64,000 nucleotides of DNA, taken from IMG/VR virus record IMGVR_UViG_3300044701_004608, positions 32,001-96,000 of that record. The stretch is one strand, 5' to 3'. Source of the DNA: a virus. A program made the translations under genes and the position numbers. Position 1 is the stretch's first letter. Each line of letters opens with the position of its first letter. The notes under the pieces are model-generated. The model worked only from the letters and a program-made list of their open reading frames with translations. It did not search any database and was not told the DNA's origin. Shown here piece by piece: positions 2,301 through 40,465 of the stretch.

Positions 2301-4355
2301 TTACTTCTCGTGCGCGATGAACTCACCGTTCCAGTTATTAGGTAAGTTCTGCTCCTTCATGAACTCGCAACGTTCGATCCAGATCTTGTAATACTTGTCC
2401 ATCTGTCCACCGAACGAACCTTTCATCTTCTTACACATGGCTGCGGTCTCATCGAACTTTTTCTGTTTATATAAGGCATGCATCTTTTCATGTTGCTCTC
2501 GATCTTTGGTCCAATCTTCTCCGTTAGGACGTAAGGCTGTGTAGATCAAGTCTGCTACAGTCTTGCCTTTTGGCTGTAAGTTGTCTAGCATCAAGTAGAA
2601 GAAGTCGTCTTTAGTACGGTTGTATGTCTCGGCACCAATGATACACAATACGCCATATGCTTTACAACGTGCTTCTAGACGTGCGGCGGTTGAAACCATG
2701 TCGCCTAAGATGTCGTAACTGTGTCTATCAGTCGATCCCATCTCGCCGATAAAGCCAATACCAGTGTTACAACCCCAACCCATTGCGGCTGGTGGTAAAC
2801 CTTGTGCTTCCATTTCTTTAGTGTAGGCATCTACAGCATCTAACATCTGTAAGCCAACGGCAACGATCGTGCGAGCATGGTTAGGATCTTCGATCGGAGC
2901 ACCATGAATGTGCATACTCGCGTCACCTACATACTTGATGACCATGCCTTTGTTGTCCATGATAGGACGACTGATGGCATCCATGTAGCCGTTCATGTAT
3001 TTGCCGAGGCCAGCGACGTCATCACCATAGTGTTCACCAATGGGAGTGAAGCCACGCAGGTCTGAGAACATCACCGACACATCTTTGCGCACACCACGCT
3101 TGATCAAGTCGGGATCTTTCTGTAGCATCTCTACCACTTCTTTGCTACAGTATCCTGCGAACTGTTTTTTTATGGCTTGCTTCTGTAAGAACTCACTTAC
3201 AAACTTAACACCATAGGTGTGAAGAGCAACAAGCAAAAGACCAACAGTAGGTGCCGTCGCGTCGATGAGCACGTTTCGTGTAGTAAACATCCACCAAGAA
3301 CAAACAGCATAGGCAACGAGCCCAAGAATAGTTGTTGCGATACCGACATAAGTCCACCTCGATATTATTATTATTGTCAGAGATAGTGCCAGGAAAGCAG
3401 CCAGCTCAGCCATGTCGGCCCAGCCAGGTCGTTGAATATGGACGTTGTTAAACATCGTGCCGATCACAGCGGCTTGCACAGTTTGTGGCCACACGGATCC
3501 CTGTGCTGTGGCAACAGGGTTAGATAGGCCGGCGGCAGCGGTGCCCACGATCACTACAGCGCCACCTAGGTCTTGCGGTAGTTCAGTGAGCCCAACCGAT
3601 TTTGAAGTCTGGCTCCAGTCTATCCATATACGACCTAAGTCGTCTGTAGGTATGACGCCAAACTTGGGAATACGCATCTTCTCTACACCTAGCTCGTTGA
3701 GCTTGGCTTGGAAGTTGGGGTCACCAGCAATGACTCTCAGCACTTCCATAGAGAGTGCGGGATATACTTGATAGCCGGCTTTGTCGGGGACCGATACTAA
3801 TAACGGCATGCGGCGTGTGACGCCATCCACTTCAGGGAATGTGGTAGTGAGTCCCACACCCACGGCAGAGTTTTCCAGTCGTGGTATGTTGGCTATGATG
3901 CCGTCTACTGTGGGCAGTCGATCAGCGAACTGTGCGCCGATGATAGCGGCGCCAGGACTGCGTGGTTCGTTCTTGCCTTTAGGTGCTGCCACGTTGGGCA
4001 ATATCACTGGCAGTTCTCGCATGGCCTGTGACAGACGAGCATCGCCGCCGGAACGATCCGCCTCGGGCATCAAGACATTGAACACCACCAAGCCAGCACC
4101 GCGCTTGTAAAGGTCTTCGATGATGTTGGCGTAGATCTGACGAGGGAATGGCCATTGGCCATAACGCTCTAGCGCGGCTTCGTCGATGTTGACGGTGTAG
4201 ATATTGTTTTCTGTGGGAGTCTTGCTGGTGATCAGCGTGTCGAAGTATCTGAGTTTTATGCTTTCTACAAAGACAGGATTGGCGAGTATTGTAATTGCTA
4301 GAAAGACAACAGTGACCAGTGCCCACAGTGGGCTGAGTGCTATTTTTTTGAACAT
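2301..4355 (-). CDS. CHASE2-domain class III adenylate cyclase
   Basis: CHASE2 motifs (VNIDE..L..YGQWPFPR, DGVTRRMPL), 3 TMs, cyclase motifs FSDLRGFT, KYVGDA, YDILGDMVSTAARLE; start at MFKK just after TAAATA. Confidence 0.93.
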   Translation of the reverse strand: MFKKIALSPLWALVTVVFLAITILANPVFVESIKLRYFDTLITSKTPTENNIYTVNIDEAALERYGQWPFPRQIYANIIEDLYKRGAGLVVFNVLMPEADRSGGDARLSQAMRELPVILPNVAAPKGKNEPRSPGAAIIGAQFADRLPTVDGIIANIPRLENSAVGVGLTTTFPEVDGVTRRMPLLVSVPDKAGYQVYPALSMEVLRVIAGDPNFQAKLNELGVEKMRIPKFGVIPTDDLGRIWIDWSQTSKSVGLTELPQDLGGAVVIVGTAAAGLSNPVATAQGSVWPQTVQAAVIGTMFNNVHIQRPGWADMAELAAFLALSLTIIIISRWTYVGIATTILGLVAYAVCSWWMFTTRNVLIDATAPTVGLLLVALHTYGVKFVSEFLQKQAIKKQFAGYCSKEVVEMLQKDPDLIKRGVRKDVSVMFSDLRGFTPIGEHYGDDVAGLGKYMNGYMDAISRPIMDNKGMVIKYVGDASMHIHGAPIEDPNHARTIVAVGLQMLDAVDAYTKEMEAQGLPPAAMGWGCNTGIGFIGEMGSTDRHSYDILGDMVSTAARLEARCKAYGVLCIIGAETYNRTKDDFFYLMLDNLQPKGKTVADLIYTALRPNGEDWTKDREQHEKMHALYKQKKFDETAAMCKKMKGSFGGQMDKYYKIWIERCEFMKEQNLPNNWNGEFIAHEK

Positions 4356-4366
4356 CAAGTATTTAG

Positions 4367-4464
4367 TGGTGCTCACTTCCGGGGTCCACGGTAGCGAATC
4401 GCTTTCCCCGCGCCAGCAGCCGGCGCACACTACGGTAACTTAATACCGGTCCTAAGGTGTGTCC
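4367..4464 (-). ncRNA. Candidate structured ncRNA between desaturase and cyclase
   Basis: GC-rich intergenic stretch with CACAC/GUGUG, CGGUA/UACCG, GCGCCGG/CUGGCGC and GGGG..GCG/CGU..CCCC stems. Confidence 0.5.
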
Positions 4465-5172
4465 TTATGGGGTCTTGACTCGAGCAAGACCCACGATCTC
4501 TAGCATCCTGATATACATCCAGCCTATGTCAAACTCCCACCACTTGTCGCTTAGTTTCGCCGAAGCAGGGCTCTTATGGTGGTTATTGTGTAGTTCTTCG
4601 CCGCCGACGATGATGCCAAACGGTGCGATGTTAGTGGACCGATCACCAGTCTCATGATTCCTATATCCTATGAAATGTGCCAATCCATTGATGACGCCAG
4701 CGGCCCAGAAGGGTATCCAAGCCATCTGTACCAACCACATCACTATGCCCCAGCCATGGAACAAGTATGTCTCTAGGACCAGCAGGGCAGTGATGCCCCA
4801 CTTGCTGTGGCTGCTGTAGATGTTGCGTTCCACCCAGTCATCGGGCGTGCCCACACCATAGGCTTCGACCATGGCCGAGTTCTTGCTGGCATCGTTGTAG
4901 AGCCACGCACCGCCAAACAGCACACGCCAGATACCGTAGACATGTGGTGAATGTGGATCACCTTCGCCTTCGGTGAAGCGATGATGCTTGCGATGTATGG
5001 CCACCCATTGCCGAGTGACCATACCTGTGGTCAGCCACAACCAGAATCGCATAGCGTGGCTGACTACTGGGTGTAGTTCTACTGCGCGGTGTGCCTGGCT
5101 CCTGTGTAGGTAGATGGTCACACACGCGATGGTGATGTGTGTCATCACCAATACTAAAATAAGTTCTGTCAT
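4465..5172 (-). CDS. Delta-9 acyl-CoA/fatty acid desaturase
   Basis: Three His boxes HRSQAH, HRKHH, HNNHH; WWEFDIGW. Confidence 0.93.
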   Translation of the reverse strand: MTELILVLVMTHITIACVTIYLHRSQAHRAVELHPVVSHAMRFWLWLTTGMVTRQWVAIHRKHHRFTEGEGDPHSPHVYGIWRVLFGGAWLYNDASKNSAMVEAYGVGTPDDWVERNIYSSHSKWGITALLVLETYLFHGWGIVMWLVQMAWIPFWAAGVINGLAHFIGYRNHETGDRSTNIAPFGIIVGGEELHNNHHKSPASAKLSDKWWEFDIGWMYIRMLEIVGLARVKTP

Positions 5173-5173
5173 A

Positions 5174-5815
5174 TTATTTCCAAGTTACCATCTTGAAGCG
5201 TTCGTCGGGCATGCCCACGAACTGACACTTCCAATGGCTTTGTGCGAAGTAGTCTAAGTCATACCACTCGCTTTTCCGTTCCAACATCCTTTTCGCTACA
5301 TCGTCCCAGTCCAGTTCGCCAAAACGCATTTCAGCGAAACATTTGAGATCCAGCATCTCGTTGTGGTCGAAGCAGTCGTATTCCCAGTGTAGGACTTCGA
5401 AGCAGTTGCCTTCGCAGTCCACCCAGTCCACAGAGAAGTCCACCCCCCACTTGGGTCGTATGGCCAACAGTTTGTGGCACAGTGGCATGTCTCGAGTCCA
5501 GCGTTCTAATTGTTTCTTCGCCTCGCCAGCATAACCTTTGCGCTCATACAGGTTGCTGTGATTCAATGTGGCACCTACCACGCTCTGGCGATCTTGCTCG
5601 AACCAGTCTTGCCGGATGGCATTGCGATGCGGATGCTCACCAGTGAAGTGGCAATGATTGGCCCTGGCATATCTGCGCTCGATGGCTGTGAGATCATAAC
5701 CGGTCTGGTCGAACATCACGAAGTCATCGGCGATGGGCATGAACATCATTGAGTCTATGGGCATGTTCCAGAACCCGTCAGGGTTGAAACTGGTGCCTCG
5801 ATTCATCAAACGCAT
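5174..5815 (-). CDS. Hypothetical phage protein
   Basis: Fills the gap between neighbours; likely start MRLMNRG; aromatic-rich. Confidence 0.7.
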   Translation of the reverse strand: MRLMNRGTSFNPDGFWNMPIDSMMFMPIADDFVMFDQTGYDLTAIERRYARANHCHFTGEHPHRNAIRQDWFEQDRQSVVGATLNHSNLYERKGYAGEAKKQLERWTRDMPLCHKLLAIRPKWGVDFSVDWVDCEGNCFEVLHWEYDCFDHNEMLDLKCFAEMRFGELDWDDVAKRMLERKSEWYDLDYFAQSHWKCQFVGMPDERFKMVTWK

Positions 5816-5816
5816 C

Positions 5817-6212
5817 TTACAATGTATCTCGTTGGACCCACTGCTGTTCGTACTTCTTGGGCACGGACTTCTTCTGCTGCCCGGGTTGTTCGCCGGTATA
5901 AGGAGCGATCTTGGTGCCAGTGGCCGTGACACAGAAAGCGTCTTCGGCCACACGCTCAACCAAGCTCCAAGTGCCCGATTTGGGATTGGCGAACATGATG
6001 GTCACGAACTCCATGCTCTGGCCACCAACTTCGCGACCCGCGAGCATCGACATCATGGGCTGTTCTTCATATTTTGCCAAGACTGCGCCCAGGGCTTGTG
6101 TGGTCATGCAGTAAGCGTCAAACTTCACTGTTTCCACTTTGGGTGCTTCTTTTTCCTGGGCTGTAGCGATGCTGCCTGCTAATAGCGCCAACACCAATAG
6201 TAATCTTTTCAC
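5817..6212 (-). CDS. Secreted/periplasmic hypothetical protein
   Basis: GTG start with AGGAG SD; signal peptide KRLLLVLALLAGSIATAQ; two Cys; TAAATA at 6233-6238. Confidence 0.7.
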   Translation of the reverse strand: MKRLLLVLALLAGSIATAQEKEAPKVETVKFDAYCMTTQALGAVLAKYEEQPMMSMLAGREVGGQSMEFVTIMFANPKSGTWSLVERVAEDAFCVTATGTKIAPYTGEQPGQQKKSVPKKYEQQWVQRDTL

Positions 6213-6235
6213 GACCTTCTCCTGGTTAAAGTTAT

Positions 6236-6664
6236 TTACCGTGGGTCCTTTGGCATCGCCGCGGTATGATCCCATTGATAGAACTCGAAAGGACTCTCGG
6301 GTTCGTCTTTTTTGCCCTTCATCTGTATTATCCGGCCTTTTTTGGCTTCTTTGACCGCTTGTCCCACTTTTTCTTGGTTCTTTTCGGTCCAAGGTATCTG
6401 ATGTAGTCTCGGGCCTTCTTTGTCGATGACCCAGATGTATATCCAAGGTTTGGCGTTGACGCCGTGTACTAATCTGCTGCCTTCCTGGGGCATGCTGGCC
6501 ACTGGTCGGCCCCGGATCTCGTCAAGGGCTTGCCAACTGAACCCTATACCAAACACCAGCAAGGGCGTCAGCAACAGCGTCAGCACGAAACTGCGATAGC
6601 GTATCAGTATGGTCAGCAACAATATCGCTAGAGTGAGGAATGAAGCCACGGCCAGCCAGATCAT
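6236..6664 (-). CDS. Two-TM membrane protein coupled to the MotA/ExbD-like pair
   Basis: Two N-terminal hydrophobic helices; ATGA overlap with upstream gene. Confidence 0.75.
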   Translation of the reverse strand: MIWLAVASFLTLAILLLTILIRYRSFVLTLLLTPLLVFGIGFSWQALDEIRGRPVASMPQEGSRLVHGVNAKPWIYIWVIDKEGPRLHQIPWTEKNQEKVGQAVKEAKKGRIIQMKGKKDEPESPFEFYQWDHTAAMPKDPR

Positions 6665-7299
6665 GGGTTTATCCTTTCGCCGGGCGGCGGCAATGTTTCC
6701 AGTGGGATGGCGCTACGGTCGGTCTCCGCGACCGTCGATACGAATCCATTGACATCCACAGTGAACGAATAATAGTTGTGTGCTTCTCCGCGGGCACCAA
6801 AATTGACGGTCTGCTGATAGATGATCTTGTAGGGATTGATCTTGAGCACTTCCACACGCACGGGTATGGGTGCTGAGATGTCTTGGTTAACGCGGTATAG
6901 GTGTCCGGATATCAAGTATTCGCCAGGCACTATGCCGCGTATGCTGACCGTCTCTTTGTTGCCCTCGACCATGACTTCTTGGCCATTGACCATCACGGTG
7001 TCGTTGAAACTGCCGAGGTCATCGCGGTCCAAGTTCATGAGCCCGGCTTCTTTGTTGCGGAATCCCACACGGTTGCCCATGGGATCTGCTACCCATAGAT
7101 CCATGTCGTTCTTGTCTGAGTCGGGCCATTCCATGGTGATCATGAACTCGGCCTTGGCCTTGATGTCGTTCTTCTTGGCCACGGGATTGATCATCAGGAA
7201 AGCCACCAGGAACAGGAACACGAATCCCACCAGGATGTTGAAAAGTAGATCTATGAACGCTATGGTGCTTTTGTAGCGGTCTTCACTGAGCATCGGCAT
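6661..7299 (-). CDS. ExbD/TolR/MotB-like single-TM protein with periplasmic beta domain
   Basis: TM with Asp (AFIDLLFNILVGFVFLFL); DMDLWVADP and LDRDD motifs. Confidence 0.7.
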   Translation of the reverse strand: MPMLSEDRYKSTIAFIDLLFNILVGFVFLFLVAFLMINPVAKKNDIKAKAEFMITMEWPDSDKNDMDLWVADPMGNRVGFRNKEAGLMNLDRDDLGSFNDTVMVNGQEVMVEGNKETVSIRGIVPGEYLISGHLYRVNQDISAPIPVRVEVLKINPYKIIYQQTVNFGARGEAHNYYSFTVDVNGFVSTVAETDRSAIPLETLPPPGERINP

Positions 7300-7786
7300 G
7301 GTCACGCCCCTCGTGGTAGTCGAGGACATGCTCGAGATTGACCAGTTGACTCTTGAGGAATAGGCTCGAGATGAGTCCCACCAGGGTGGTGTAGAGTGCA
7401 GTGCTCATGCCCAGGGCCATGTCAGCGAGAGCACGCTGTAAGGTGGCGGTATCGGCGACATTGATGCCCGAGAAAGTGGTGCCCAGCATCAGCAAGAATC
7501 CAGCCACTGTTCCAATCATGCCCACGGCCAGCATGGACTCGCTGAGGAACCAGCCTATCTTGATGTGATAGTTGACATTGGTGACAGTGATGTTATAGTG
7601 CCAGATGCCAGCGGCTATGGTGGATACCACCCATAGAAACAAGATCACGAAACTCAGTTTGGTCTGATCAGCCGCCCACAGTTCGTCGTAGGCACCGAAA
7701 TAGCCCACGACCATAAAAAATAGCCCCTGTAAACAGACCAGGAGCCACCAACGAAGGAAACTGGCTCTGATATATTTCATGTCCAT
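7283..7786 (-). CDS. MotA/TolQ/ExbB proton-channel family protein
   Basis: GMIGTVAGF and GMSTALYTTLVGL signature helices. Confidence 0.85.
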   Translation of the reverse strand: MDMKYIRASFLRWWLLVCLQGLFFMVVGYFGAYDELWAADQTKLSFVILFLWVVSTIAAGIWHYNITVTNVNYHIKIGWFLSESMLAVGMIGTVAGFLLMLGTTFSGINVADTATLQRALADMALGMSTALYTTLVGLISSLFLKSQLVNLEHVLDYHEGRDHADAQ

Positions 7787-7790
7787 GTAT

Positions 7791-9713
7791 TTATTGTCCT
7801 TGCGTCACAGTTATGGCCGCACAACTAGCGGTAGCACAATTGTGAGTTATAGAATAACTCTGTTGAGTAGAACCGCTCTGTGTGGCCGTTACACTGGTGG
7901 CACCACCTGTGAGTTCTATCCGTGCCATGTGATTGGCCGAGCCGCTCTGTGTGAGATTCACTGTTTTGTTGCCGCCTGCGAGGTTTATTTCGGAATAGTG
8001 ATTGCCTGTGCCGGTTTGATTTATGGTAAGGCTATTTGAATCGCTGTTAACGGTGGCTAATACACCTTTGCTGCCGCCAGTGCTGTTCTGTGTCAGCCCA
8101 ACGGTATTGGAACCACCTGTGAGATCTAATTCCACATAATTGCTGGAGGAATTCGTGGTGGTTTGATTTGTGGTCATGGAGTTATTGCTGCCAGTGATGT
8201 TGGCTTCTAGATAGTTCTTGCCACCATGTTGTGTCACAGAGATAACATTGGAGTTTCCTATCTGTTCGATGATGACTCGGCTGTCGCCCACTGCAGAAAA
8301 TACTCCTGCTCGGGTGGCAAATCCGCTGTTGGCATCAAATGGAGTGCTTACCCCGCCGCAGCATAGGTCACTGGGATTTGACACAGAACCAGATCCAGTG
8401 GCTGTTGAAGTGGCTGTACTACTGGATTCATAGTAAAAGGTGATCTCAGCGATCTGCATGCTGTCGCAGTTCAATCCACAACCGTCACCGGCCTTGGTGG
8501 TGGGGAAGAAAATATAGTAATAGATATAAGGAGTGGCGTTGGTCACTGAGATCATGCTGCTGGTGGTTTTCCTATCATCGGTCAGTGATAGATTTCCTTC
8601 TCCCAGCAGAGTCCAGGTCACACCGTCGTTGGAGGCATACAACTTATAACTGGTGGGATCTCTACCGGGAAAATCGTTGGCTGTTGTTAGAGTAAATCCA
8701 GTTATGACTTTACCGATGTTCAACTTCACTGTGACTCCGGCGTTCTTCTTGTCAAAGTTTAGATACTTGGTATCAGGGTCGTTGTCAAAGGCCTTGGCAG
8801 CATCTTCACCCGCAGGACTGTTGTTCGATGTGGGATAGTGATTGGTGATCCAGACATTCTGGCTGATGCCTGAATTGTAAACAGCAGTGGGCACAGATGG
8901 AGAGGGCGGTGGCGGAGCATCCGATCCTGGATTGGGATTTACTGGAGTGAATGTTTGTCCGTTCAATGAGGTTGTTCCCTGCACTTCGTCTACCAGCAGG
9001 ATGGGACTTAGTGCGGTATCACCTAGATTGAATGATGTGAAACCCAACACATAGGTTCCCGACACTGGCACAGTGAATGTGGCCACTTGCCAACCCGTGG
9101 CACCATAACTGCCTGTGGCATAGTTTCCTGTGCCGGGATTGGTAAAACCCAGCAAAGAATATCTCTGTTGTTTGTTGTTGAGAGTGGGAGTGATATTGCC
9201 GTCGGTGCTGTGGACCAGACTCATGATAGATCCGTCGTTGAAGGGAGTGTAGTCTGTGGAAAGATACTGCCAGGCCATGGTATAGGTCTGTCCTGCCTGC
9301 AAGGTGATCTCTCGCTTCATGTAGGAGCCTGTGGTGGGAGTTGGATTACCTCCTCCGCCGTTCTGCGATTGATAAGTCAGCATGTTTTTGATCGCGGTGT
9401 TTTCCACACCTGATAATCCCAGGCCCGAAGTGATCTGGTCAAAGGCCAAGCCGCCGCCTTGTATGCTGGCCATCTTGGTTCCATAGGGAGTGATGTTCCA
9501 GGTTAGGCCGCCACCAGGACTGTAGTTGGTGACGCCAGTGACCACGCTGACTCCCACACCATTTGGATTCCACCCGGTGGCTGACTGTGTTCCTGTGGTT
9601 CCACCAATCTGCCACTCTGCACCTAGACCGTTTTCGAATCCATAGTTGGCGTTGGCCAGCGCGGAGTGTAACACAGACAGTATCCCAAATAAAAAAATCA
9701 GTAGATTTTTCAT
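7791..9713 (-). CDS. Secreted adhesin-like protein: carbohydrate-binding-like domain, F5/8 type C (discoidin) domain, C-terminal curlin-like repeats
   Basis: Signal peptide MKNLLIFLF; SPAGEDAAKAFDN..TANDFPGRDP..ASNDG.TW; repeats such as IEQIGNSN, INQTGTGNH, LTQSGSANH. Confidence 0.75.
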   Translation of the reverse strand: MKNLLIFLFGILSVLHSALANANYGFENGLGAEWQIGGTTGTQSATGWNPNGVGVSVVTGVTNYSPGGGLTWNITPYGTKMASIQGGGLAFDQITSGLGLSGVENTAIKNMLTYQSQNGGGGNPTPTTGSYMKREITLQAGQTYTMAWQYLSTDYTPFNDGSIMSLVHSTDGNITPTLNNKQQRYSLLGFTNPGTGNYATGSYGATGWQVATFTVPVSGTYVLGFTSFNLGDTALSPILLVDEVQGTTSLNGQTFTPVNPNPGSDAPPPPSPSVPTAVYNSGISQNVWITNHYPTSNNSPAGEDAAKAFDNDPDTKYLNFDKKNAGVTVKLNIGKVITGFTLTTANDFPGRDPTSYKLYASNDGVTWTLLGEGNLSLTDDRKTTSSMISVTNATPYIYYYIFFPTTKAGDGCGLNCDSMQIAEITFYYESSSTATSTATGSGSVSNPSDLCCGGVSTPFDANSGFATRAGVFSAVGDSRVIIEQIGNSNVISVTQHGGKNYLEANITGSNNSMTTNQTTTNSSSNYVELDLTGGSNTVGLTQNSTGGSKGVLATVNSDSNSLTINQTGTGNHYSEINLAGGNKTVNLTQSGSANHMARIELTGGATSVTATQSGSTQQSYSITHNCATASCAAITVTQGQ

Positions 9714-10759
9714 CGGTTCCACTGCCTTATGGTTATCTTGGTAGACCCATCGCCGGTGACCCGTGTATGTAGGTCGTTGTCGTTGATGGATATGCTGTAA
9801 GTGACATTGTCTTGTAGTTCGCCCGACTTCACTGAGATAGTGTTGCCTTTTTCGGGATCGTGACGCCAGTAATAGTTGCGACCTTTTTCGTTGCCGCATT
9901 CGTTGAATGGGTAACAGTTGTCGTTCCGGCTGGATTCGTTGCTTTTATTCTCGGCACTGGCATCTACCAATAACTTCGTAGAGGACTCATCCGATTTCGC
10001 TTTCTGATCCCGGGCCGATTTCTTATCTTCATCCTCTCGGGCTTGTTCTTTCTCGCGATCTTTTTCTTTAAGTTGTTCATCAATACCATCGGGCTTGACC
10101 AAGTTCATGTCGTTGTTGATCAAAGCTATGTCGGGAATGACCGCTACCGGTGGTAGTGGCGCGGCATCTGAAGAAGCTACATATGTGGCCGTGAACGCTT
10201 GGTTCAAGCTCACCATGCCTGCGGCCGTTTCCACATCGATCTGGCCCACTGTACAGTTGTCAGCGATGCGATAGTTGTTAGTATTACGAGGATCTTCACA
10301 GCTGGGCAATAAAACGACCACAGAGCGTCCTGCTTCATCCACGGTCATGGAGAAGTCAGTGCCGCGCACAGCGATGGTGGCCGTGGGTGTCTTGAGGTTC
10401 ACTGCCTGTCGGTTGGTCTTGGCTATCTGGCCCGAAGTGTATTTCACTGTGCCTAGTGCCACTTTCATGGCCAGTTTGCCAGCATCGCTGGCCTTAGGGT
10501 CAAACACGAAATCGTCGATGACCAATCGACTGTTGGCTGTTATCTTTACCTTTGTGTTGTCTTGGAAAGTCAACCCGGCTTCAGTGGCCGATCCCACTAC
10601 TACGAGATCGTTGCTTTCGATGCCGGACTGTTTTGTTATCTGTGATGTAGCAGAACCGCGTTTGACGCTCGCGTTGGCACCTTTGAGTTCAGTTACCGAG
10701 CCTATAGAAGCCCATGAACTCACAGATGCCAACAGTAATAACGAGCATATCCAACGCAT
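9710..10759 (-). CDS. FecR-domain secreted protein
   Basis: Signal peptide; FQDNTKVKITANSRLVID, LKTPTATIAVRGTDF. Confidence 0.88.
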   Translation of the reverse strand: MRWICSLLLLASVSSWASIGSVTELKGANASVKRGSATSQITKQSGIESNDLVVVGSATEAGLTFQDNTKVKITANSRLVIDDFVFDPKASDAGKLAMKVALGTVKYTSGQIAKTNRQAVNLKTPTATIAVRGTDFSMTVDEAGRSVVVLLPSCEDPRNTNNYRIADNCTVGQIDVETAAGMVSLNQAFTATYVASSDAAPLPPVAVIPDIALINNDMNLVKPDGIDEQLKEKDREKEQAREDEDKKSARDQKAKSDESSTKLLVDASAENKSNESSRNDNCYPFNECGNEKGRNYYWRHDPEKGNTISVKSGELQDNVTYSISINDNDLHTRVTGDGSTKITIRQWNR

Positions 10760-11424
10760 TAGTTTCCAGTGATCACTGTCACTGTGTTCGAGTTACCGTT
10801 AGTGTTGATGCTGACGATAGTATCAATGCTTCCCGACTGTGTGACGGAATGCGTATTAGAAGTTCCTGTGACTGCGGCTGTCAATGTATGGCCACCACCT
10901 GCTGATGTGCCCGACATTGTATGTGTGAACTGGTTGCTGTCGCCCAGGATGGTGATCGAGGCTGAACTGTTGTCAGTCTGGATGTCCTGAGATACTGTGT
11001 TGCTGTTGCCAGTGATGCTAAGGCTGTTAGTGATGGCAGAACCTTTGATGGTCTGTGTCACTGTGTTGCTGTCGCCTTGTATAGTTGTAGTGCTTGTCAC
11101 TCCTGTACATGCAGTAGTTCCGTCACCGCAAGTCATGGTGATGGCGTTAGTGTCGCCAGTCACTGACTTAGTGATAGTGTTGCCAGAACCTGTGACAGCG
11201 TAAGCCAGCGTGTTTGAATCGCCGGTTTGTGTCACGGTCATTGAGTTGTTGCTGCCAGTGATGGTAGCGTCAACGCTGGAAGTACCCACAGAGTTGAGCG
11301 TACCAACTTGTGTTATGCTGATGGTGTTACTGCCACCAACCTGCTCGATATACACTGAGTTTCCTGCATGGGCCACGGTGAATGACATCGCCACCGCTAA
11401 ACCTATCAGTGTTCTTTTAAACAT
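10759..11424 (-). CDS. Curlin-repeat (CsgA/CsgB-like) secreted protein
   Basis: Signal peptide ending AHA; repeated N-x5-Q-x-G-x2-N units; Thr/Ser/Asn/Gly-rich. Confidence 0.75.
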   Translation of the reverse strand: MFKRTLIGLAVAMSFTVAHAGNSVYIEQVGGSNTISITQVGTLNSVGTSSVDATITGSNNSMTVTQTGDSNTLAYAVTGSGNTITKSVTGDTNAITMTCGDGTTACTGVTSTTTIQGDSNTVTQTIKGSAITNSLSITGNSNTVSQDIQTDNSSASITILGDSNQFTHTMSGTSAGGGHTLTAAVTGTSNTHSVTQSGSIDTIVSINTNGNSNTVTVITGN

Positions 11425-11466
11425 GCTTTATCAGAGGCGTTAAACCTCCGCTCCTTCATTTTATGT

Positions 11467-12618
11467 TCAATCGTCTAAACGACTGAATCTGCTTTTATGT
11501 ACCCAACCGGTATTGCCGCTATATTCGACGAATACCCAGTCTCGTTTCTTTTCTAGGACCACGACACGCGACCCGGGTTCAAGCCTTGTTGTCTTTTCAC
11601 TGTCCGTGATAGGCTGGCTCCGCAGGTTAGACCAATCTTTGATCTCACCTGTTTTTTTGATGGGCACAGCTTTCTGTTGAGGTACTACTTTTTCAGTTGT
11701 GGGTGAGGGCGGAGTTTCTTTTTCAATTTTCTTTTCTGTTACTGGAGAAGCCGCAGGAGCGGGTGCTACTTTGACTTCTTCTTTTTTTGGTTCAACCTTG
11801 GGTGTTTCTGTCAATGGTGTAGCCACGACCACTGGTTTACGATACTGCCAATGTCCTTTTTTCTCGCCTTGCTTGATCATCTCGATCACGGCGGCGTGGA
11901 TGGCTAGTTGTACTGCGCTGTTCATGCTTTCGTTGCTGGCGGCACCAGTTTCAAGTTCCAGTGCTTTAGTGCCAAGATCATAGAAGCGTAGCACGCCCAT
12001 CTTGTCTTGGAACGACACTACGGTTTTCTTGATCGTGACTGCTGTGAGAACTTCACCGCTGGCCACAGAAACAGCACGGAGACTAATCACGATCTCGTCC
12101 TGGCGATATTCTGTGCTGGCCCCGATGCCTAATAATCTAGCGCCCGAGCCACCACTGATCACGTTGCTGTCATAACCTACGATACCACCTTCAAGTATCA
12201 GTCCTGCGAACACCATAGGAGGCAATGCCTGTGCGTCCTTGCCTTGATAGAGTTCGCGCATCTGGCGTATGAGCTGGCGTTCCTTGACGATGTTGTCTAG
12301 GCCGCCACGCTCGACTACTTTAAACCAACTGCCGTTGCCTACTTCCTGTAAGCTACGGATGAGATAGTTGTCAGCACCTTGTGTCACAGCCGAGCTCAAT
12401 GATGCTAGAGTCTGGCTGGCTTTGCGTTGACCTGTTAAGTCACGGAAACTGTAGACGGCCACGGTGATAGCACCACCTTGTGGTGGTAACAGTTGTTCTT
12501 GGTTCAATAATACTGGTTGTGTGGCTTCAGGTTGATCGATGGTACGAACTTGTTTAGAAATCGTAGAGCATCCAGCCAACATGGATATCACTGCGAGTGC
12601 TAGGATAGTCTTCTTCAT
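11467..12618 (-). CDS. csgG: CsgG curli secretion lipoprotein fused to a C-terminal SH3b domain
   Basis: Lipobox LAGC; VAVYSFRDLTGQRK, WFKVVERGGLDNIVKERQLIR, EGGIVGYD; C-terminal NLRSQP..DWVFV..GWV. Confidence 0.92.
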   Translation of the reverse strand: MKKTILALAVISMLAGCSTISKQVRTIDQPEATQPVLLNQEQLLPPQGGAITVAVYSFRDLTGQRKASQTLASLSSAVTQGADNYLIRSLQEVGNGSWFKVVERGGLDNIVKERQLIRQMRELYQGKDAQALPPMVFAGLILEGGIVGYDSNVISGGSGARLLGIGASTEYRQDEIVISLRAVSVASGEVLTAVTIKKTVVSFQDKMGVLRFYDLGTKALELETGAASNESMNSAVQLAIHAAVIEMIKQGEKKGHWQYRKPVVVATPLTETPKVEPKKEEVKVAPAPAASPVTEKKIEKETPPSPTTEKVVPQQKAVPIKKTGEIKDWSNLRSQPITDSEKTTRLEPGSRVVVLEKKRDWVFVEYSGNTGWVHKSRFSRLDD

Positions 12619-13076
12619 GGCGCGATCCATCCAAAGTCACCGATGGGCACAGACACGGTAGTGACATTACCATTGTTGTCTGTGATAGTCATGGTGATGG
12701 TCTGTCCATCACTGGTGTAACTGATAGATCCGCCATTGAAACTGAAAGAACCATTGACTTGTGTGCCTTGGCCTTCGAATAGTTTTTCTGTGATCTGGCG
12801 TGCGAGTTCGTTGTAGACGCGGCTTTCCAAGTTGGCAATGAATCGTGCCATAGTGGTGTTTTTGGCGTCTTGCTCGGCTTTCAAGTCAGCGGCTTTCTTC
12901 TCGGCTGCGATAGCGAGTTTGCGGCTGAGTTCTTGATTATAGATAGTCAGGACATGGCTCGAGTAGCCGATGCCAGAAAATGCGGGTGAGTTAAATTGAT
13001 GTACTAATTCACTTGCTACTATACTGCTCGATATCACACAGCTCACGACCGCTATTGTAATTTTTTTTGCGATCAT
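12615..13076 (-). CDS. csgF: CsgF curli assembly protein
   Basis: Signal peptide then SELVHQFNSPAFSG; FIANLESR; ITDNNGNVTTVSVP. Confidence 0.88.
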   Translation of the reverse strand: MIAKKITIAVVSCVISSSIVASELVHQFNSPAFSGIGYSSHVLTIYNQELSRKLAIAAEKKAADLKAEQDAKNTTMARFIANLESRVYNELARQITEKLFEGQGTQVNGSFSFNGGSISYTSDGQTITMTITDNNGNVTTVSVPIGDFGWIAP

Positions 13077-13077
13077 T

Positions 13078-13110
13078 TGTCTGCTCCTAATATTATTTAA
13101 GGAGCAGACA
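13078..13110 (-). promoter_or_regulatory. RBS-sequestering hairpin with late promoter TAAATA in the loop
   Basis: 11-bp perfect inverted repeat TGTCTGCTCCT/AGGAGCAGACA containing the csgF SD; TAAATA at 13094-13099. Confidence 0.75.
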
Positions 13111-13128: not shown

Positions 13129-13431
13129 TTATTTTGTGCGACTCAATATTTCGTCGTAGAATGAATCGAGTTCTCCGCCGAACTTGCCATAAAGTGTCTT
13201 AGACAACTCCTGACAGGTTTCGTAGTCGTTGTCTCGGGCCGCAGCAACAAACTGCTGGTGCAATTTCTTAGACTCGTCAAGTCCGATGAGATCACCGAGT
13301 TTTATTTTATCTGCGGTGACTACACAAAATGCTTCAACAGTCTGTCCTTCGACTACAAACGATTCTAGTTCAAGTACTGTGTGCTTCTTAGCCACTTCTT
13401 CGGCTATGTGACGATGTAGTATTATTTGCAT
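13129..13431 (-). CDS. Hypothetical phage protein
   Basis: Clean ORF; C-terminal GKFGGELDSFY resembles the cyclase tail GSFGGQMDKYY. Confidence 0.7.
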   Translation of the reverse strand: MQIILHRHIAEEVAKKHTVLELESFVVEGQTVEAFCVVTADKIKLGDLIGLDESKKLHQQFVAAARDNDYETCQELSKTLYGKFGGELDSFYDEILSRTK

Positions 13432-13436
13432 GAGTG

Positions 13437-14717
13437 TTATCCTAAATCGTATCCTTGACTATGGAAAATTTTGTATGATTTAGGAAATCTAAAACGATGA
13501 TTGGGTGTTTTAAAAAATGAAGGAAATTGTTCGTGATTGGGGTAGACAAAATCCTTGAACATATTAGAAAATTTTGTCCTATTATGATCGCCGATCCATT
13601 CCCAGTTAAACCAGTCAGGGTCCACCTGCATGGTTTTAGCGGCATTGATCATGTAGGCCTGGGAGGCATCGGTGTTTGATCCATAGAACCATTCATCTCT
13701 TTTAGTAAAGTAAATGCCAGTGACGCTTTTTTCGTTACTGAATGTGTCCAATGACCAATAAGGATATATTATAGTCTTGACATGTTCATTAGTGAGACGC
13801 CGGTCATTGAACCAAACAAGAGATTCAGCAACTTCGTACCCCCAACGATTTATTTTAGAAAATTGTTCGATTAGTGCTTGATTTTGGGGGTTTAACAAAT
13901 GTTTTTTGATTTCGTGGCATTGCTTGATGACTAATTCGGGAAGATCGGGAGTCCAATAAAAAAACTCACTGTGGTCTGTTTCTCGATTATACATCTGAAA
14001 GTTAGCTGGCGCACTATGATCAATGATGTCATAAAAACTAGCTGACCATTTTCCGTCACGATATCTCACTGAAGGTTTGTCGGTAGCATGTATGATCGCT
14101 AATTTTTTACCTGACTCAATGATCTTTTTGTAATCATCAATGTAGAGTCTTAGGTCTGCGCGGCAGACATTTTGTATACTAGCACAAGCATTACCATAAT
14201 AGATAAATTCAAATTTAGCTTCGGGATGATCTTTCCAAAATTGAAATTGAAATTCGGTGAGATCAACAAATCTATGTTTGACGTTTGGAAATTTTTCTTT
14301 GACCAATTCTCCATAAGGATGTGCCACTTTCCATATCTCGGCATTTTGAAAAGAATCCTTGTCGCCTTTGTTGCCTTCATAGGTATGCCAACTTAGCAGT
14401 TCGTCAATAGGAATATCATTTTTCAAGAAAGCCATGAGAGCATTGTGGCTGTCCGATCCACCGCTGAAGGCTAGAACAAGATAGTCGTATTTGTTTCTTA
14501 ATTGCTCGGCTCGCCGGCGATAGAGATCTAACAACGATTCGCTGGGTTCAATGGCCCAGTTATAACAGGAAAAAACTTCGTCGTTGAAATTCCAGCGTGG
14601 CTTTTTTTTAGATTGTTCAGATACTACTATAGCATCATATTTGCTGTAGGTTTTGTAGTCGCCAACTTCGTAATAACCAAATCGATTCTTATCGCTATTA
14701 GGGTGGAAGAGTTTCAT
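13437..14717 (-). CDS. PP-loop adenine nucleotide alpha-hydrolase-like protein
   Basis: LAFSGGSDS motif; start MKLFHP overlaps the upstream stop; AT-rich. Confidence 0.75.
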   Translation of the reverse strand: MKLFHPNSDKNRFGYYEVGDYKTYSKYDAIVVSEQSKKKPRWNFNDEVFSCYNWAIEPSESLLDLYRRRAEQLRNKYDYLVLAFSGGSDSHNALMAFLKNDIPIDELLSWHTYEGNKGDKDSFQNAEIWKVAHPYGELVKEKFPNVKHRFVDLTEFQFQFWKDHPEAKFEFIYYGNACASIQNVCRADLRLYIDDYKKIIESGKKLAIIHATDKPSVRYRDGKWSASFYDIIDHSAPANFQMYNRETDHSEFFYWTPDLPELVIKQCHEIKKHLLNPQNQALIEQFSKINRWGYEVAESLVWFNDRRLTNEHVKTIIYPYWSLDTFSNEKSVTGIYFTKRDEWFYGSNTDASQAYMINAAKTMQVDPDWFNWEWIGDHNRTKFSNMFKDFVYPNHEQFPSFFKTPNHRFRFPKSYKIFHSQGYDLG

Positions 14718-15247
14718 CTTAGTTTTTTGATATTGTGTTCTCGGTAAACCTGCTGTACACCTTGTGCTTGATACACGCAATCGGCCAGGGCATTGTGGTG
14801 TCCTACTCGACCTTTTGCCCTTGGATCGCCGAGGACTCCAAATAGTGTGCGGCTGTCTCGTATCTGCCAAAACTGCCACGGAGTAGGCCAGCCATACTGG
14901 CGATAGATATTTTCAAGGATCGCGATGTCAAACACGGGGCCTTGTGCCCATATGTTATTTACACCTACAAGGAAACGGTTCAATTGTTTGTACATCTCTT
15001 CCACAGAGACACGATCATTTTCGCCAATGGCTTCTTCGCGTACCGCTTCGTCCTGTTTCATCCACCATTGTAGAGTGTCTTCCTGGACTTCTCGGCCACG
15101 TGCGATCTGTTCGTCGGCGTCTACCCGCAGATACAGTCCGGGGCCAGGTTCATCAGATGAGTAAGGGTCAAATTTAACCGCGCCCAGAGTCAGTATCACG
15201 CAATCGGGGCGGGTTCCTAGTGTTTCGAGGTCAAGCATCACATCCAT
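14714..15247 (-). CDS. DEDDh 3'-5' exonuclease (RNase AS-like)
   Basis: MLDLETL, WAQGPVFD, RDSRT, HNALADC. Confidence 0.88.
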   Translation of the reverse strand: MDVMLDLETLGTRPDCVILTLGAVKFDPYSSDEPGPGLYLRVDADEQIARGREVQEDTLQWWMKQDEAVREEAIGENDRVSVEEMYKQLNRFLVGVNNIWAQGPVFDIAILENIYRQYGWPTPWQFWQIRDSRTLFGVLGDPRAKGRVGHHNALADCVYQAQGVQQVYREHNIKKLR

Positions 15248-15253
15248 ACGGAT

Positions 15254-15282
15254 ATTATATGCTATTATTTTGATTGTGTCAA
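15254..15282 (-). promoter_or_regulatory. Sigma70-type early promoter, near-leaderless transcript
   Basis: TTGACA-17-TATAAT, 6 nt before the ATG at 15247. Confidence 0.8.
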
Positions 15283-15744
15283 GAGTTTTTGGCTTTCGGC
15301 GGCCACTACCCGTTTACGCAGGCTCGAACTGGAAAAACTATGGTCCCGGCCATTGAAAATGATTTCGATGCAGCGATGTTCACATTCATCTCGACCAGTG
15401 AAATGTTTACCTTCGTATTCCACACCCAACACCCGCACATCAATTGGAAGTATCAGTAACAAGTCTACGAGATCTTGTTCGGTTTGGTAGACCACCACTT
15501 CGTCCACATAACGGCAAGCAGCCAATTGGATCTGGCGTTCTACGATGCTTTGTACCGGAGAATTTTTAGTATCAGGACGGTCGATGGTGGGATCAGTCTG
15601 TAAGCCAGCGATGAGATAATCGCAATGGTTCTTGGCTTCGGCCAACATAGCGATATGCCCGGCATGTAGCATGTCAAAGGTAGAGAAGGTTATGCCGATC
15701 CTCTTGCCCTGGGCTTTGAGGTCTTTGATGTGGTTGAATATCAC
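15265..15744 (-). CDS. Cytidylyltransferase (TagD/glycerol-3-phosphate CT-like)
   Basis: TFDMLHAGH (HIGH-type), YVDEV, HSFSSSSLR. Confidence 0.88.
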   Translation of the reverse strand: MIFNHIKDLKAQGKRIGITFSTFDMLHAGHIAMLAEAKNHCDYLIAGLQTDPTIDRPDTKNSPVQSIVERQIQLAACRYVDEVVVYQTEQDLVDLLLILPIDVRVLGVEYEGKHFTGRDECEHRCIEIIFNGRDHSFSSSSLRKRVVAAESQKLLTQSK

Positions 15745-16058
15745 TGATCAGCTTCGAGTTTGACTTGTAAAGGGAAACCGTTGTTACGGGCGAGTAGTGT
15801 GACTTCGATGCCTTTTTGTTCGGCGATCTCAAAGGGCAACACCGCTACTACAGCAGATCCGTCACTATGGATACGGACGGTGATGTCTTGGGCCCGGTCT
15901 TCGTCGTAATCGAAGATAGCTTTAAGGGTTTCGATGACGAACTCCATTGTAGTTGTCTCGTCATTGATATAGATCACCTTGAAGAAGGGCGGCTCTTTGA
16001 TGGAAAGGTCTTCGGCGATTCGGGGTCTCACGATAGTTTCAGTTTTTGTGTCTGCCAT
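15741..16058 (-). CDS. clpS: ATP-dependent Clp protease adaptor ClpS
   Basis: PPFFKVIYINDETTTMEFV, IHSDGSAVV, EIAEQK, GFPLQV. Confidence 0.92.
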   Translation of the reverse strand: MADTKTETIVRPRIAEDLSIKEPPFFKVIYINDETTTMEFVIETLKAIFDYDEDRAQDITVRIHSDGSAVVAVLPFEIAEQKGIEVTLLARNNGFPLQVKLEADQ

Positions 16059-16091
16059 GTCATGTCCAGTATTTAATCGAAAGTCAAACAA

Positions 16092-16109
16092 GGGCGGGTC
16101 TCCCCGCCC
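16092..16109 (-). terminator. Probable intrinsic terminator after hsp20
   Basis: GGGCGGG/CCCGCCC stem followed by TTGTTT on the minus strand. Confidence 0.5.
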
Positions 16110-16115
16110 AGGGCA

Positions 16116-16556
16116 TCACTTAGCAAAAGTGATGGCGATCTTTTTAGGCTTCTTCTCCTCGGGAACCACATGCTCGAGTGCTACACTCAAGATACCATTC
16201 TTGACTGTGGCGGCACGCACTTCCACGTTGTCTGCCAGGGTGAATCTGCGAACGAAACTGCGAGCAGAAATACCACGATGCAGATACTCAGGAGTATCTT
16301 CCTGCTTGGCACGCTCACCGGCCACGGTCAGCACGCCATCTTTGAGCTCAACGTCGAGTTCTTCTTCGTTGAACCCAGCCACTGCTACTTCGACCACATA
16401 ATGTGCGTCGTCGAGCTTGACCACGTTATAAGGAGGATAGTTATCGCCTTTGCTGTTAGCGAAAGTGCGATTCAGTTCCTCAAACATACGGTCGAAGCCG
16501 ATAGCATGGCGGTGTAATGTAGGAAGATCAAAAGTGGAAAAAGTATATTGTGTCAT
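16116..16556 (-). CDS. Small heat shock protein Hsp20 (IbpA-like)
   Basis: IGFDRMF, YPPYN, VAVAGF, YLHRGIS.RSF, NGIL, PEEKKP..IAI. Confidence 0.95.
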   Translation of the reverse strand: MTQYTFSTFDLPTLHRHAIGFDRMFEELNRTFANSKGDNYPPYNVVKLDDAHYVVEVAVAGFNEEELDVELKDGVLTVAGERAKQEDTPEYLHRGISARSFVRRFTLADNVEVRAATVKNGILSVALEHVVPEEKKPKKIAITFAK

Positions 16557-19356: not shown

Positions 19357-19415
19357 GATTATGTATTTAACCCTAGAGTTGTTAAAAAATATAGTAGCAG
19401 AAACTCAGAGATAAA

Positions 19416-36382: not shown

Positions 36383-36411
36383 CTTTTACAGAATCCTGTG
36401 TTTTTTGATAT

Positions 36412-37122
36412 TTATGACAATCTATAGTATTGCTCGACACGCCGCATCCACTGTTCGCTCCAATGGGAGAACTCATCTTCTTCGACGACGAATTCTAGGT
36501 ATTCTGGTGTCGAAAACGTGCCGTCTGGTAGTTCTTTTGGCTGGACAGCCATCAAAATCACACCGGTCTTGATGTCAGTGCCGTGCATGTTGTTATGGGC
36601 GGCGGCATAGGCCGCGAGCTGTAGGAAATAATCCTCGATCCACTCGCGCTTCTTGGGCTTGTTGGTCTGCTTGAAGTCCATGATAGCCGGCCGGCCTTTC
36701 CAGACACCCAAGCAATCAGTGGTACCAGCGTAGAGCCCGCTGTAGTACAAGGGCACTTCTACTCCCCAGAATTCGTCGACGTTGCCCAGTCCCTTTAGTA
36801 TGACTTCTGCGGCCATGAACCATGAAGGATGCGCGAAAGGATTGCCAGGCAAGTCTTTCATTTCGTCAGTTTTGACAAAGTGTTCAAGGTAACTGTGCAT
36901 CCTGGTGCCACGGTTCGCGGCTTCGGTGACGATCTGCTGGGCTTTAGCTTCGCCCACGCTTTTCTTCCATCGCTCTAATGCGTCGCGTTTTTCTTGTGGC
37001 TTTGTCTTATCCAAGATGGTAGTGACGCTGGGGACTTTGCTACCATCAGGTAAGCAATAGTGTCTCTTGCCATCGATGGTTTCTCGATCGCAAGGTGTAT
37101 AGTCATAACGATGTGTGATCAA
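36412..37122 (-). CDS. PD-(D/E)XK exonuclease
   Basis: PSVTTIL, RGTRMH, E..YAGTTD, IMDFKQ, QLAAYA. Confidence 0.88.
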   Translation of the reverse strand: MITHRYDYTPCDRETIDGKRHYCLPDGSKVPSVTTILDKTKPQEKRDALERWKKSVGEAKAQQIVTEAANRGTRMHSYLEHFVKTDEMKDLPGNPFAHPSWFMAAEVILKGLGNVDEFWGVEVPLYYSGLYAGTTDCLGVWKGRPAIMDFKQTNKPKKREWIEDYFLQLAAYAAAHNNMHGTDIKTGVILMAVQPKELPDGTFSTPEYLEFVVEEDEFSHWSEQWMRRVEQYYRLS

Positions 37123-39902: not shown

Positions 39903-40465
39903 GATTTAGGGTCCCAAACTTTCAAGTATTTAGTTGACTTTAGGCTTTTTTCGAGATTGTTTTTGACGTTGTCAAACTGTGCTTTTGCTTGTAAATAACG
40001 ATTCCAGATAAACTCAGTTTTCACGACATCTTTTTTACGAATACTATTTTCGATGCTTTTTTTATAAAAAGTCAGATCGATGAACAACTTCGTCATTTTA
40101 TTGTCTAACAACAAAATCTGATGAGCTTCACGGAATTTACCGAGATGCTCGAGTACACAATAAGCGACAGCCGCGCTTTTCCATAGAAAAAATCCCTTGG
40201 CATCTTTTGCTTGGTCAGACACTTTCCAGGTATCATTTGGTAGATGTTCTACTAAAAATCGCCCCACACGATATCCATCCCCGCGAGGTATTATCAACGG
40301 TTCTCGACGTGTGATTAGTGCTTGGTTAGCTTCTTCCCGGGCCCAGTGTTTGATATATGCTGCGGCGAGATCGGCGGCGATCTCTACGTCTCTTACATCA
40401 GATTTATTGGCAGTTTTGCGAGATGATCGCTTACGAGATTTTTTTGGTGTAGATGATCCTACCAT
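39899..40465 (-). CDS. Hypothetical protein
   Basis: Clean ORF in a late gene block. Confidence 0.65.
   Translation of the reverse strand: MVGSSTPKKSRKRSSRKTANKSDVRDVEIAADLAAAYIKHWAREEANQALITRREPLIIPRGDGYRVGRFLVEHLPNDTWKVSDQAKDAKGFFLWKSAAVAYCVLEHLGKFREAHQILLLDNKMTKLFIDLTFYKKSIENSIRKKDVVKTEFIWNRYLQAKAQFDNVKNNLEKSLKSTKYLKVWDPKS

Follow-up and report, generated by a model that had tools for sequence, protein, structure and literature searches.

What a phage would gain from carrying the machinery for curli export, and what it would have its host display by this route, is the question raised by a five-gene block in a viral record from IMG/VR. The block lies at positions 7791-13110 of a stretch of 64,000 nucleotides (the window), which corresponds to positions 32,001 to 96,000 of record IMGVR_UViG_3300044701_004608. 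Its genes are co-oriented on the minus strand and encode CsgF, CsgG, a first curlin (curlin 1), a FecR-domain protein and a second curlin that bears N-terminal heads (curlin 2). It is close to certain that the block represents the published viral type VIII secretion system (T8SS), or curli, module. New with respect to the literature searched are the headed, head-exchanging second curlin and a family of adhesin heads shared with other secretion systems. In the explanation considered here the probable one, curlin 1 fibres secreted late in infection and bearing a subunit with an exchangeable head would make the infected cell bind the ligand that the head specifies, with an envelope sensor composed of the FecR protein and a CHASE2 cyclase alongside.

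The viral curli module

The first gene of the block, csgF (12615-13076), encodes an exported curli assembly factor of 153 aa. It matches the Pfam family CsgF (PF10614, E 1.7e-16) over profile positions 11-132 of 132, as well as phrog_35372 (E 3e-40); a phmmer search of the Protein Data Bank (PDB) did not find a CsgF chain. The second, csgG (11467-12618), encodes the outer-membrane lipoprotein channel (383 aa; PF03783, E 1.5e-47, 162 bits against a cut-off of 20.8). The N-terminus of the protein, MKKT..LAGC, is a lipobox, with an alternative ATG at 12630, and the protein aligns with CsgG from Escherichia coli (3x2r, residues 6-260) with an E value of 1e-41. Curlin 1 (10759-11424; 221 aa, with a signal peptide) matches Curlin_rpt (E 4.9e-9) and is presumed to be the major fibre subunit. 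It is followed by the gene for the exported FecR-domain protein (9710-10759; 349 aa, PF04773) and by the fifth gene, for curlin 2 (7791-9713; 640 aa, F5/8 type C and Curlin_rpt). Neighbouring genes share an ATGA overlap (csgF/csgG and fecR/curlin 2) or a TAATG junction (curlin 1/fecR), and only csgG and curlin 1 are separated, by a gap of 42 nt. Judged by inspection of the translations, each of the five proteins has a Sec-type or lipoprotein signal at its N-terminus. Pfam matches, junctions and translations thus confirm the description given in the earlier note of five contiguous, mostly overlapping genes with signal peptides. That note also considered the operon complete between 7791 and 13110. 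The five genes are indeed there, but the module additionally includes a gene outside these limits, at 2301-4430 on the same strand, for a 709-aa protein with a CHASE2 domain and a class III nucleotide cyclase domain (Guanylate_cyc).

The arrangement is not restricted to the window. CsgG relatives are encoded on 435 IMG/VR contigs and, from a search of IMG/VR with a CsgG alignment, 80 viral loci were compared; presence was counted in the 40 non-identical loci with at least 7 kb of downstream sequence. A survey of co-occurrence in viral databases, one of the checks named in the earlier note, found the genes of the module linked in 38 to 40 of these loci: csgF, located upstream of csgG, in 40, FecR in 39, and a curlin and the cyclase in 38 each, with a second curlin in 29. 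Given this recurrence in related viral loci, the arrangement is not due to chance.

A search at the DNA level with 7 kb against cultured phages returned nothing, and the nearest cultured relatives, Methylophilales phage Melnitz and Pelagibacter phage HTVC008M, were reached only at the protein level. The viral T8SS of HTVC008M (NC_020484, gp014-019) and Melnitz (MZ577097, genes 99-104) has the same order, csgF-csgG-curlin-FecR-second curlin-CHASE2 cyclase, and the window's CsgG (47-48%), FecR (46%) and cyclase (37-44%) are recognizably similar in identity to theirs. In none of the three modules is a CsgE, CsgC or CsgD recognised, and all have a late-type box before csgF. The differences lie in the GC content (44-52% in the window region, 34-37% in the HTVC008M and Melnitz loci), in a linker and an SH3 domain that the window's CsgG has and those of HTVC008M and Melnitz do not, and in the heads of the second curlin, which are adhN and discoidin in the window, PA14 in HTVC008M and none in Melnitz. 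The sole departure from the published order is an insert of 3.3 kb before the cyclase gene.

Phage csgF/csgG pairs had been described in the earlier note as devoid of curlin substrates, a view that is outdated. It stems from the description of the five-gene operon, in which CsgA/B were deemed missing and the idea of "sibling capture" was put forward (Zaragoza-Solas et al. 2020, PMC7029224), and from the study of Melnitz, in which CsgA/B were again deemed missing and a pore for lysis was suggested (Buchholz et al. 2022, PMC9004378). In pelagiphages of the myo- and podo-types, CsgA/B, FecR, a second CsgA/B, an adenylate cyclase and a histidine kinase were subsequently identified by Wittmers et al. 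(2022, PMC9599517). These authors recovered them from each of the 65 stations of the GOV2.0 ocean virome set as well as from metatranscriptomes, and considered roles in aggregation, in protection against superinfection and in import. GenBank for the most part annotates the genes of the HTVC008M and Melnitz modules with these identities, and both Melnitz curlin genes bear the label 'curlin associated repeat protein'. Aggregation ('sibling capture') and protection from superinfection are therefore ideas proposed earlier in these three papers, which make no mention of heads, lectins, SH3 or CHASE2.

Bacterial curli systems, such as CsgA/B/E/F/G from E. coli and the alphaproteobacterial-type operons, have in common with the viral module CsgG, CsgF, curlin repeats, a predicted CsgA-like beta-solenoid and Sec signals. 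However, 20 bacterial loci from species-representative genomes show the order curlin(s)-csgF-csgG and, with one exception, no FecR or cyclase gene nearby. The exception (L096; RGCF01000015.1, a 46.6-kb contig of a metagenome-assembled genome named 'Bacteroidetes bacterium', GC 0.42) has the order csgF-csgG-curlin-FecR-adhN curlin-cyclase. It is probably a phage contig binned into that genome, and at most a weak hint to the host.

The headed second curlin and the evidence for exchange of its heads

Curlin 2 starts with the residues MKNLL at 9713; an open reading frame that extends to 9899 was considered and discarded as an artefact. A signal peptide (aa 1-22) precedes the N-terminal adhesin head, here called adhN (aa ~25-262; 8928-9641), a discoidin or CBM32 domain (aa 274-434; 8412-8894; F5/8 type C, E 4e-10), a disordered Ser/Thr linker (aa 436-477) and a curlin beta-solenoid (aa 478-640; 7794-8282), all encoded on the minus strand. 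When the C-terminal 191 aa are scanned alone, four stretches match Curlin_rpt, with 22.4 bits against a gathering threshold of 20.7. The structural model (pLDDT 77.4 overall) equally falls into four parts. Residues 30-255 form a beta-sandwich with two helices (pLDDT mostly 78-95), residues 274-434 adopt the beta-sandwich fold of the discoidin family, residues 436-477 are the disordered linker, and residues 478-625 contain six and a half strand-turn-strand units.

The curlin-repeat parts of both proteins are predicted as stacked strand-turn-strand beta-solenoids, with AF2 pLDDT values of 90.2 for curlin 1 and 83-91 for the solenoid of curlin 2. The predicted structures match solved CsgA fibrils, in the case of curlin 1 only in an exhaustive VIA search; a Foldseek search of curlin 1 against the PDB gave nothing at E <= 0.001. 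The repeats of the two curlins are homologous (hhalign probability 99%). Modelling, proposed in the earlier note as a check of the solenoid fold, thus came out in its favour for both curlins, which are predicted to be CsgA-like. The cysteines of both proteins are all found in short-range pairs (412/416, 451/452 and 626/631 in curlin 2; 99/106 in curlin 1), a pairing that would fit transit through a narrow channel.

The earlier note had the second curlin fused to a discoidin domain and to another putative glycan-binding domain. The discoidin domain and a further N-terminal domain are present, so that the headed curlin itself is real and has more support than the letters alone could give it, but glycan binding by the N-terminal domain is conjectural. 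That adhN might be a divergent discoidin domain was ruled out (hhalign probability 0.15%), and a Pfam scan at a loose threshold returned a single sub-threshold match, to PA14 (E 0.04). The domain is represented by 305 cluster representatives among 1.84 billion proteins. In the long members, adhN stands behind an ESPR signal and forms the tip of the passenger in type V autotransporters, which also contain PATR repeats and an autotransporter beta-domain; it is also found inside adhesins with Big_9 or cadherin repeats, once adjoining a discoidin domain. Because of its presence in both kinds of adhesin, adhN appears to be an unnamed adhesin-head domain used with several secretion systems. The same domain of ~240 aa (43-56% identity) would be carried on a curlin solenoid and exported by the T8SS here, and on a PATR beta-helix and exported by the type V secretion system (T5SS), or on Ig repeats, in the other proteins.

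No natural curlins fused to folded heads are reported in the literature searched. As far as engineered curli display is covered by the work cited in PMC10192328 (CsgA fusions; Van Gerven et al. 2014), it likewise combines a passenger, a flexible linker and a curlin solenoid. Compared with what that source describes, the fusion in the window is natural, its heads are N-terminal rather than C-terminal, and its passenger is far larger (~430 aa in two domains).

At least 1,971 metagenomic homologues of curlin 2 were found, and they are modular. Their forms include adhN-discoidin-curlin (~640-730 aa), adhN-curlin (~464 aa), PA14/GLEYA-adhN-curlin (~630 aa), and discoidin-curlin with another N-terminus (~555-650 aa). 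The 29 IMG/VR loci that have a second curlin comprise eight with a discoidin head, seven with adhN, one with both and five with PA14; in the remaining eight, the head is unrecognised or absent. The cultured pelagiphage HTVC008M also belongs to this picture. Its gp018 (L002:9567-10892), listed in RefSeq as a 'hypothetical protein', matches PA14 (27.7 bits) and Curlin_rpt (33.1 bits) above the Pfam cut-offs, and is on these matches a predicted lectin-headed curlin.

The clearest case of head exchange is offered by two loci from different samples, L015 and L016. Across 11.4 kb that include csgF, csgG, curlin 1 and fecR, their DNA has an identity of 98.9%, and the alignment ends exactly at the start of the fifth gene (headed curlin region 12707-14596 in L015 and 12707-14380 in L016). 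From there one locus has an adhN head and the other a discoidin head, which cannot be aligned, and after the head the identity returns (78% in the solenoid, 94% in the cyclase). The opposite combination is seen between the window and L009, where the heads are nearly the same (adhN 96% and discoidin 91% identical) and the backbone is far more divergent (CsgG 71%, curlin 1 61%, FecR 53%). Taken together, the two comparisons give the pattern that would be expected of a specificity-determining part under diversifying exchange. On this ground it is tentatively proposed, at somewhat less than even confidence, that the second curlin is a swappable targeting subunit, in which the exchange of heads on a constant curlin stalk would change what infected cells stick to. 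Such an exchange can be likened to that of receptor-binding tips in tail fibres.

Proposed secretion and sensing, and the competing explanations

A short motif suggests that the module is expressed late in infection. In the window, the coding (minus) strand contains TAAATA 23 times (for example at 36409-36414, 19364-19369 and 39927-39932) and the plus strand three times, and the motif often lies 13-40 nt before gene starts, including those of tail-spike-like and virion-protein genes. Many relatives have a TAAATA-type box about as far before csgF as in the window, TATAAATA in the case of HTVC008M. TAAATA is probably the late-promoter core of this phage group, and its pattern suggests late expression of the T4 type. 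Sigma-70 and terminator scans gave nothing convincing inside the operon. In the window, the box (13094-13099) lies in the loop of a hairpin 5' of csgF (13078-13110, minus strand; 11-bp stem), which has a folding energy of -18.8 kcal/mol and a z score of -5.4, with none of 200 shuffled sequences folding as well. Its 3' arm buries the Shine-Dalgarno sequence of csgF (AGGAG), and the hairpin sequence is identical in the closest relative, L004. This element may serve to control translation or transcription.

After a linker rich in Pro, Lys and Glu, CsgG ends in an SH3 domain (11491-11628; SH3_3 PF08239, E 9.3e-13, 48.6 bits against 27, aa 335-380 of the 387-aa form; SH3_4, 1.2e-7). Tblastn also detects tails of this type in L004, L009 and L021, and an alignment shows one in L006; a word-indexed search for the tail retrieved the window's own protein and one close relative only, and yields no estimate of prevalence. 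The SH3 tail probably ties CsgG to the cell wall, peptidoglycan binding being assumed from the family.

The genes, their families, the folds predicted for them and their conserved linkage are established, and from these elements the following mechanism is proposed. The operon would be transcribed from a late-type promoter, and the lipoprotein CsgG would form an outer-membrane channel, onto which CsgF docks and which is probably anchored to the cell wall via the SH3 tail. Curlin 1 and the 640-aa curlin 2 would be exported by Sec and then pass CsgG unfolded. Curlin 1 would stack into beta-solenoid fibres, which curlin 2, as a minor or nucleating subunit, would join or nucleate via its homologous solenoid, holding the autotransporter-type adhesin head and the predicted sugar-binding CBM32 domain out on a linker of ~40 residues, be it at the fibre tip or along its length. 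The infected cell would thereby adhere to whatever ligand the head specifies, and the head would be swapped between related phages. The exported FecR protein and the CHASE2 cyclase, as a linked pair, would sense conditions in the periplasm and signal through a cyclic nucleotide. Candidate pay-offs are aggregation with new hosts, the exclusion of other phages, or something else.

Several observations weigh against this mechanism. The constriction-loop positions of CsgG align to Ser/Ser/Leu instead of Tyr51, Asn55 and Phe56, the constriction residues of E. coli CsgG. No equivalents of CsgE or CsgC are recognised, and no natural precedent was found for ~430 residues of beta-sandwich domains crossing CsgG. 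Regarding the head, no solved structure matches the fold of adhN among the top 50 matches of either VIA search, which were filled by the discoidin and solenoid parts. The second curlin is missing from 10 of the 40 related loci, about a quarter, and that of Melnitz has no head, so that the head on the second curlin is optional. The exact TATAAATA is not enriched in the window (two found against 1.7 expected), and the call of a late promoter rests on a short motif. In the cyclase, the motif GDMVSTAARLE has Ser at the position of the usual transition-state Asn. Finally, Melnitz-infected cells showed no clumping (Buchholz et al. 2022, PMC9004378).

The cyclase and its FecR partner are at the centre of the first alternative, where the block is mainly a trans-envelope sensor. 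The curlins and heads would serve as an antenna, or the open pore would admit a signal, and the FecR protein would act through the CHASE2 cyclase and cAMP or cGMP to tune phage development, for example lysis timing or the response to superinfection, with adhesion being secondary. The FecR protein (PF04773, E 8.8e-10; phrog_37870, 2.8e-68) contains a FecR domain (aa 53-149), a linker with acidic and basic residues and a small domain at its C-terminus, and is devoid of transmembrane segments. In the cyclase, a periplasmic CHASE2 domain (1.5e-35) is combined with a catalytic domain (Guanylate_cyc, 1.7e-14) in which the two Asp residues for metal binding and the KxxGD Lys are retained; the protein is 44% identical to the cyclase of Melnitz, whose gene directly follows that of the second curlin. 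FecR-CHASE2 is a conserved operon couple in bacteria, known from a biofilm-regulating operon of Burkholderia (BiofilmReg, PMC5192318). There too, an exported FecR protein is found beside a membrane protein with a periplasmic CHASE2 domain, but in the window a class III cyclase takes the place of the histidine kinase as output, the FecR protein has no LysM domain, there is no response regulator, and the pair is embedded in a viral secretion operon. By analogy, the two proteins would form a sensor pair attached to the secretion genes.

This sensor explanation draws further on gene content, given that FecR and the cyclase are steadier across the 40 loci than the second curlin, and that several loci contain only csgF-csgG-curlin-FecR-cyclase. 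It is nonetheless regarded as unlikely. Curlin 1 is kept almost universally, and the fast-swapping adhesin heads point to surface binding, while no physical link between fibre and FecR is known. Nor was a cyclic-nucleotide receptor found, although no search aimed at one was made. Moreover, Ser replaces the catalytic Asn in 26 phage cyclases of the fetched loci, the window's among them, against 24 with Asn; this roughly even split suggests two lineages, possibly of differing activity.

A further proposal is that CsgG and CsgF have been repurposed as an outer-membrane pore for lysis timing or solute uptake, and that the repeat proteins are not secreted substrates (Buchholz 2022; Zaragoza-Solas 2020). 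The divergent constriction loop, the position of the operon behind a late-type box and the lack of clumping in Melnitz infection (PMC9004378) would all fit this function, yet the proposal rested on an absence of curlins that does not hold, and two curlin-fold proteins with signal peptides are co-inherited with the pore. A simple pore would need no CsgF, and a 1-nm channel in the outer membrane leaves the swappable heads unexplained, all of which makes this explanation very improbable. Hardly credible at all is that the repeat proteins are virion or virion-associated fibres with heads for phage adsorption: head swapping does resemble that of tail-fibre tips, the discoidin region weakly matches a 'tail protein' PHROG (E 3e-4) and beta-solenoids are common in tailspikes, but the Sec or lipoprotein signals on all five proteins would take them out of the cytoplasm, where virions are assembled, and argue for exported proteins, the link to an outer-membrane secretion channel is constant, and the module is also present in podoviruses (PMC9599517).

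The insert, the carrier phage and the meaning of the module

The region between curlin 2 and the cyclase gene (4465-7786, minus strand) harbours the 3.3-kb insert. It encodes, all on the minus strand, a MotA/ExbB-like protein of 167 aa (7283-7786; MotA_ExbB, 2.6e-5), a 222-aa protein with a single transmembrane segment (6661-7329), a membrane protein of 142 aa (6236-6664), a further one or two small open reading frames, one of them at 5817, which bring the small membrane or exported proteins to three or four, and a fatty-acid desaturase (4465-5172; FA_desaturase, 1.3e-11). NCBIfam and PHROGs gave no useful name for the MotA/ExbB-like genes. No tblastn match to the MotA-like gene was found in any locus where csgG was found, and the only insert genes with matches in the 80 related viral loci are the open reading frame at 5817, weakly (29%, in L045), and the desaturase, which is located elsewhere in L010 and L011. 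In L009, which has the closest adhesin, the match to the cyclase begins ~840 bp after the adhesin. The MotA/ExbB-like cluster was considered as a part of the module and rejected, since, apart from these two exceptions, the genes of the insert appear in none of the 80 loci; the insert appears to be lineage-specific cargo outside the conserved module.

The source of the window is a virus record of 111,782 bp with an estimated CheckV completeness of 32%. An identical copy of the curlin 2 protein is encoded on a contig of 339,769 bp, and a related locus is present on another of 357,559 bp. On account of these two contigs, and of the completeness estimate, the carrier would be an uncultured jumbo phage with a genome of ~340 kb. 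The phage context is provided by ribonucleotide reductase subunits, a DnaB-type helicase, a primase and PHROGs of tail-fibre and virion proteins around the operon. Profiles for T4 gp23 and the portal protein had no match in the 112-kb record, which is 32% complete, and gave none in the control genomes either.

Other genes are located 5' of the operon. Directly 5' of csgF, a gene at 13129-13431 (minus strand) encodes a protein of 100 aa with a weak likeness to the C-terminal end of the cyclase of the module (aa 642-687; E 2e-5 in a pairwise comparison), with which it has the motif G-x-FGG-x-x-D-x-(F/Y)-Y in common. It is found at the same position in L004, L045, L075 and L083, and may be a cytoplasmic partner of the cyclase. 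Further upstream, 14714-16556 (minus strand) encodes an Rv2179c-like 3'-5' exoribonuclease, a cytidylyltransferase, ClpS and Hsp20; most of the closer relatives (L004-L034) keep the exoribonuclease, Hsp20 and ClpS in this neighbourhood.

Viral curli modules are widespread, as reflected by the 435 IMG/VR contigs and by their detection at every GOV2.0 station in the published survey. Exchangeable heads would turn the vague idea of fibres for aggregation into specific and cheap tests, for which near-identical phages with different heads, such as L015 and L016, would be natural controls for head specificity. If the second curlin is indeed a swappable targeting subunit, the module would be a natural counterpart of engineered curli display, in which CsgG exports passengers of at least 400 aa, and this export of large passengers on curli fibres would be of interest for engineered living materials. 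In a broader sense, adhN would be an unnamed adhesin-head domain common to the substrates of type V and type VIII secretion.

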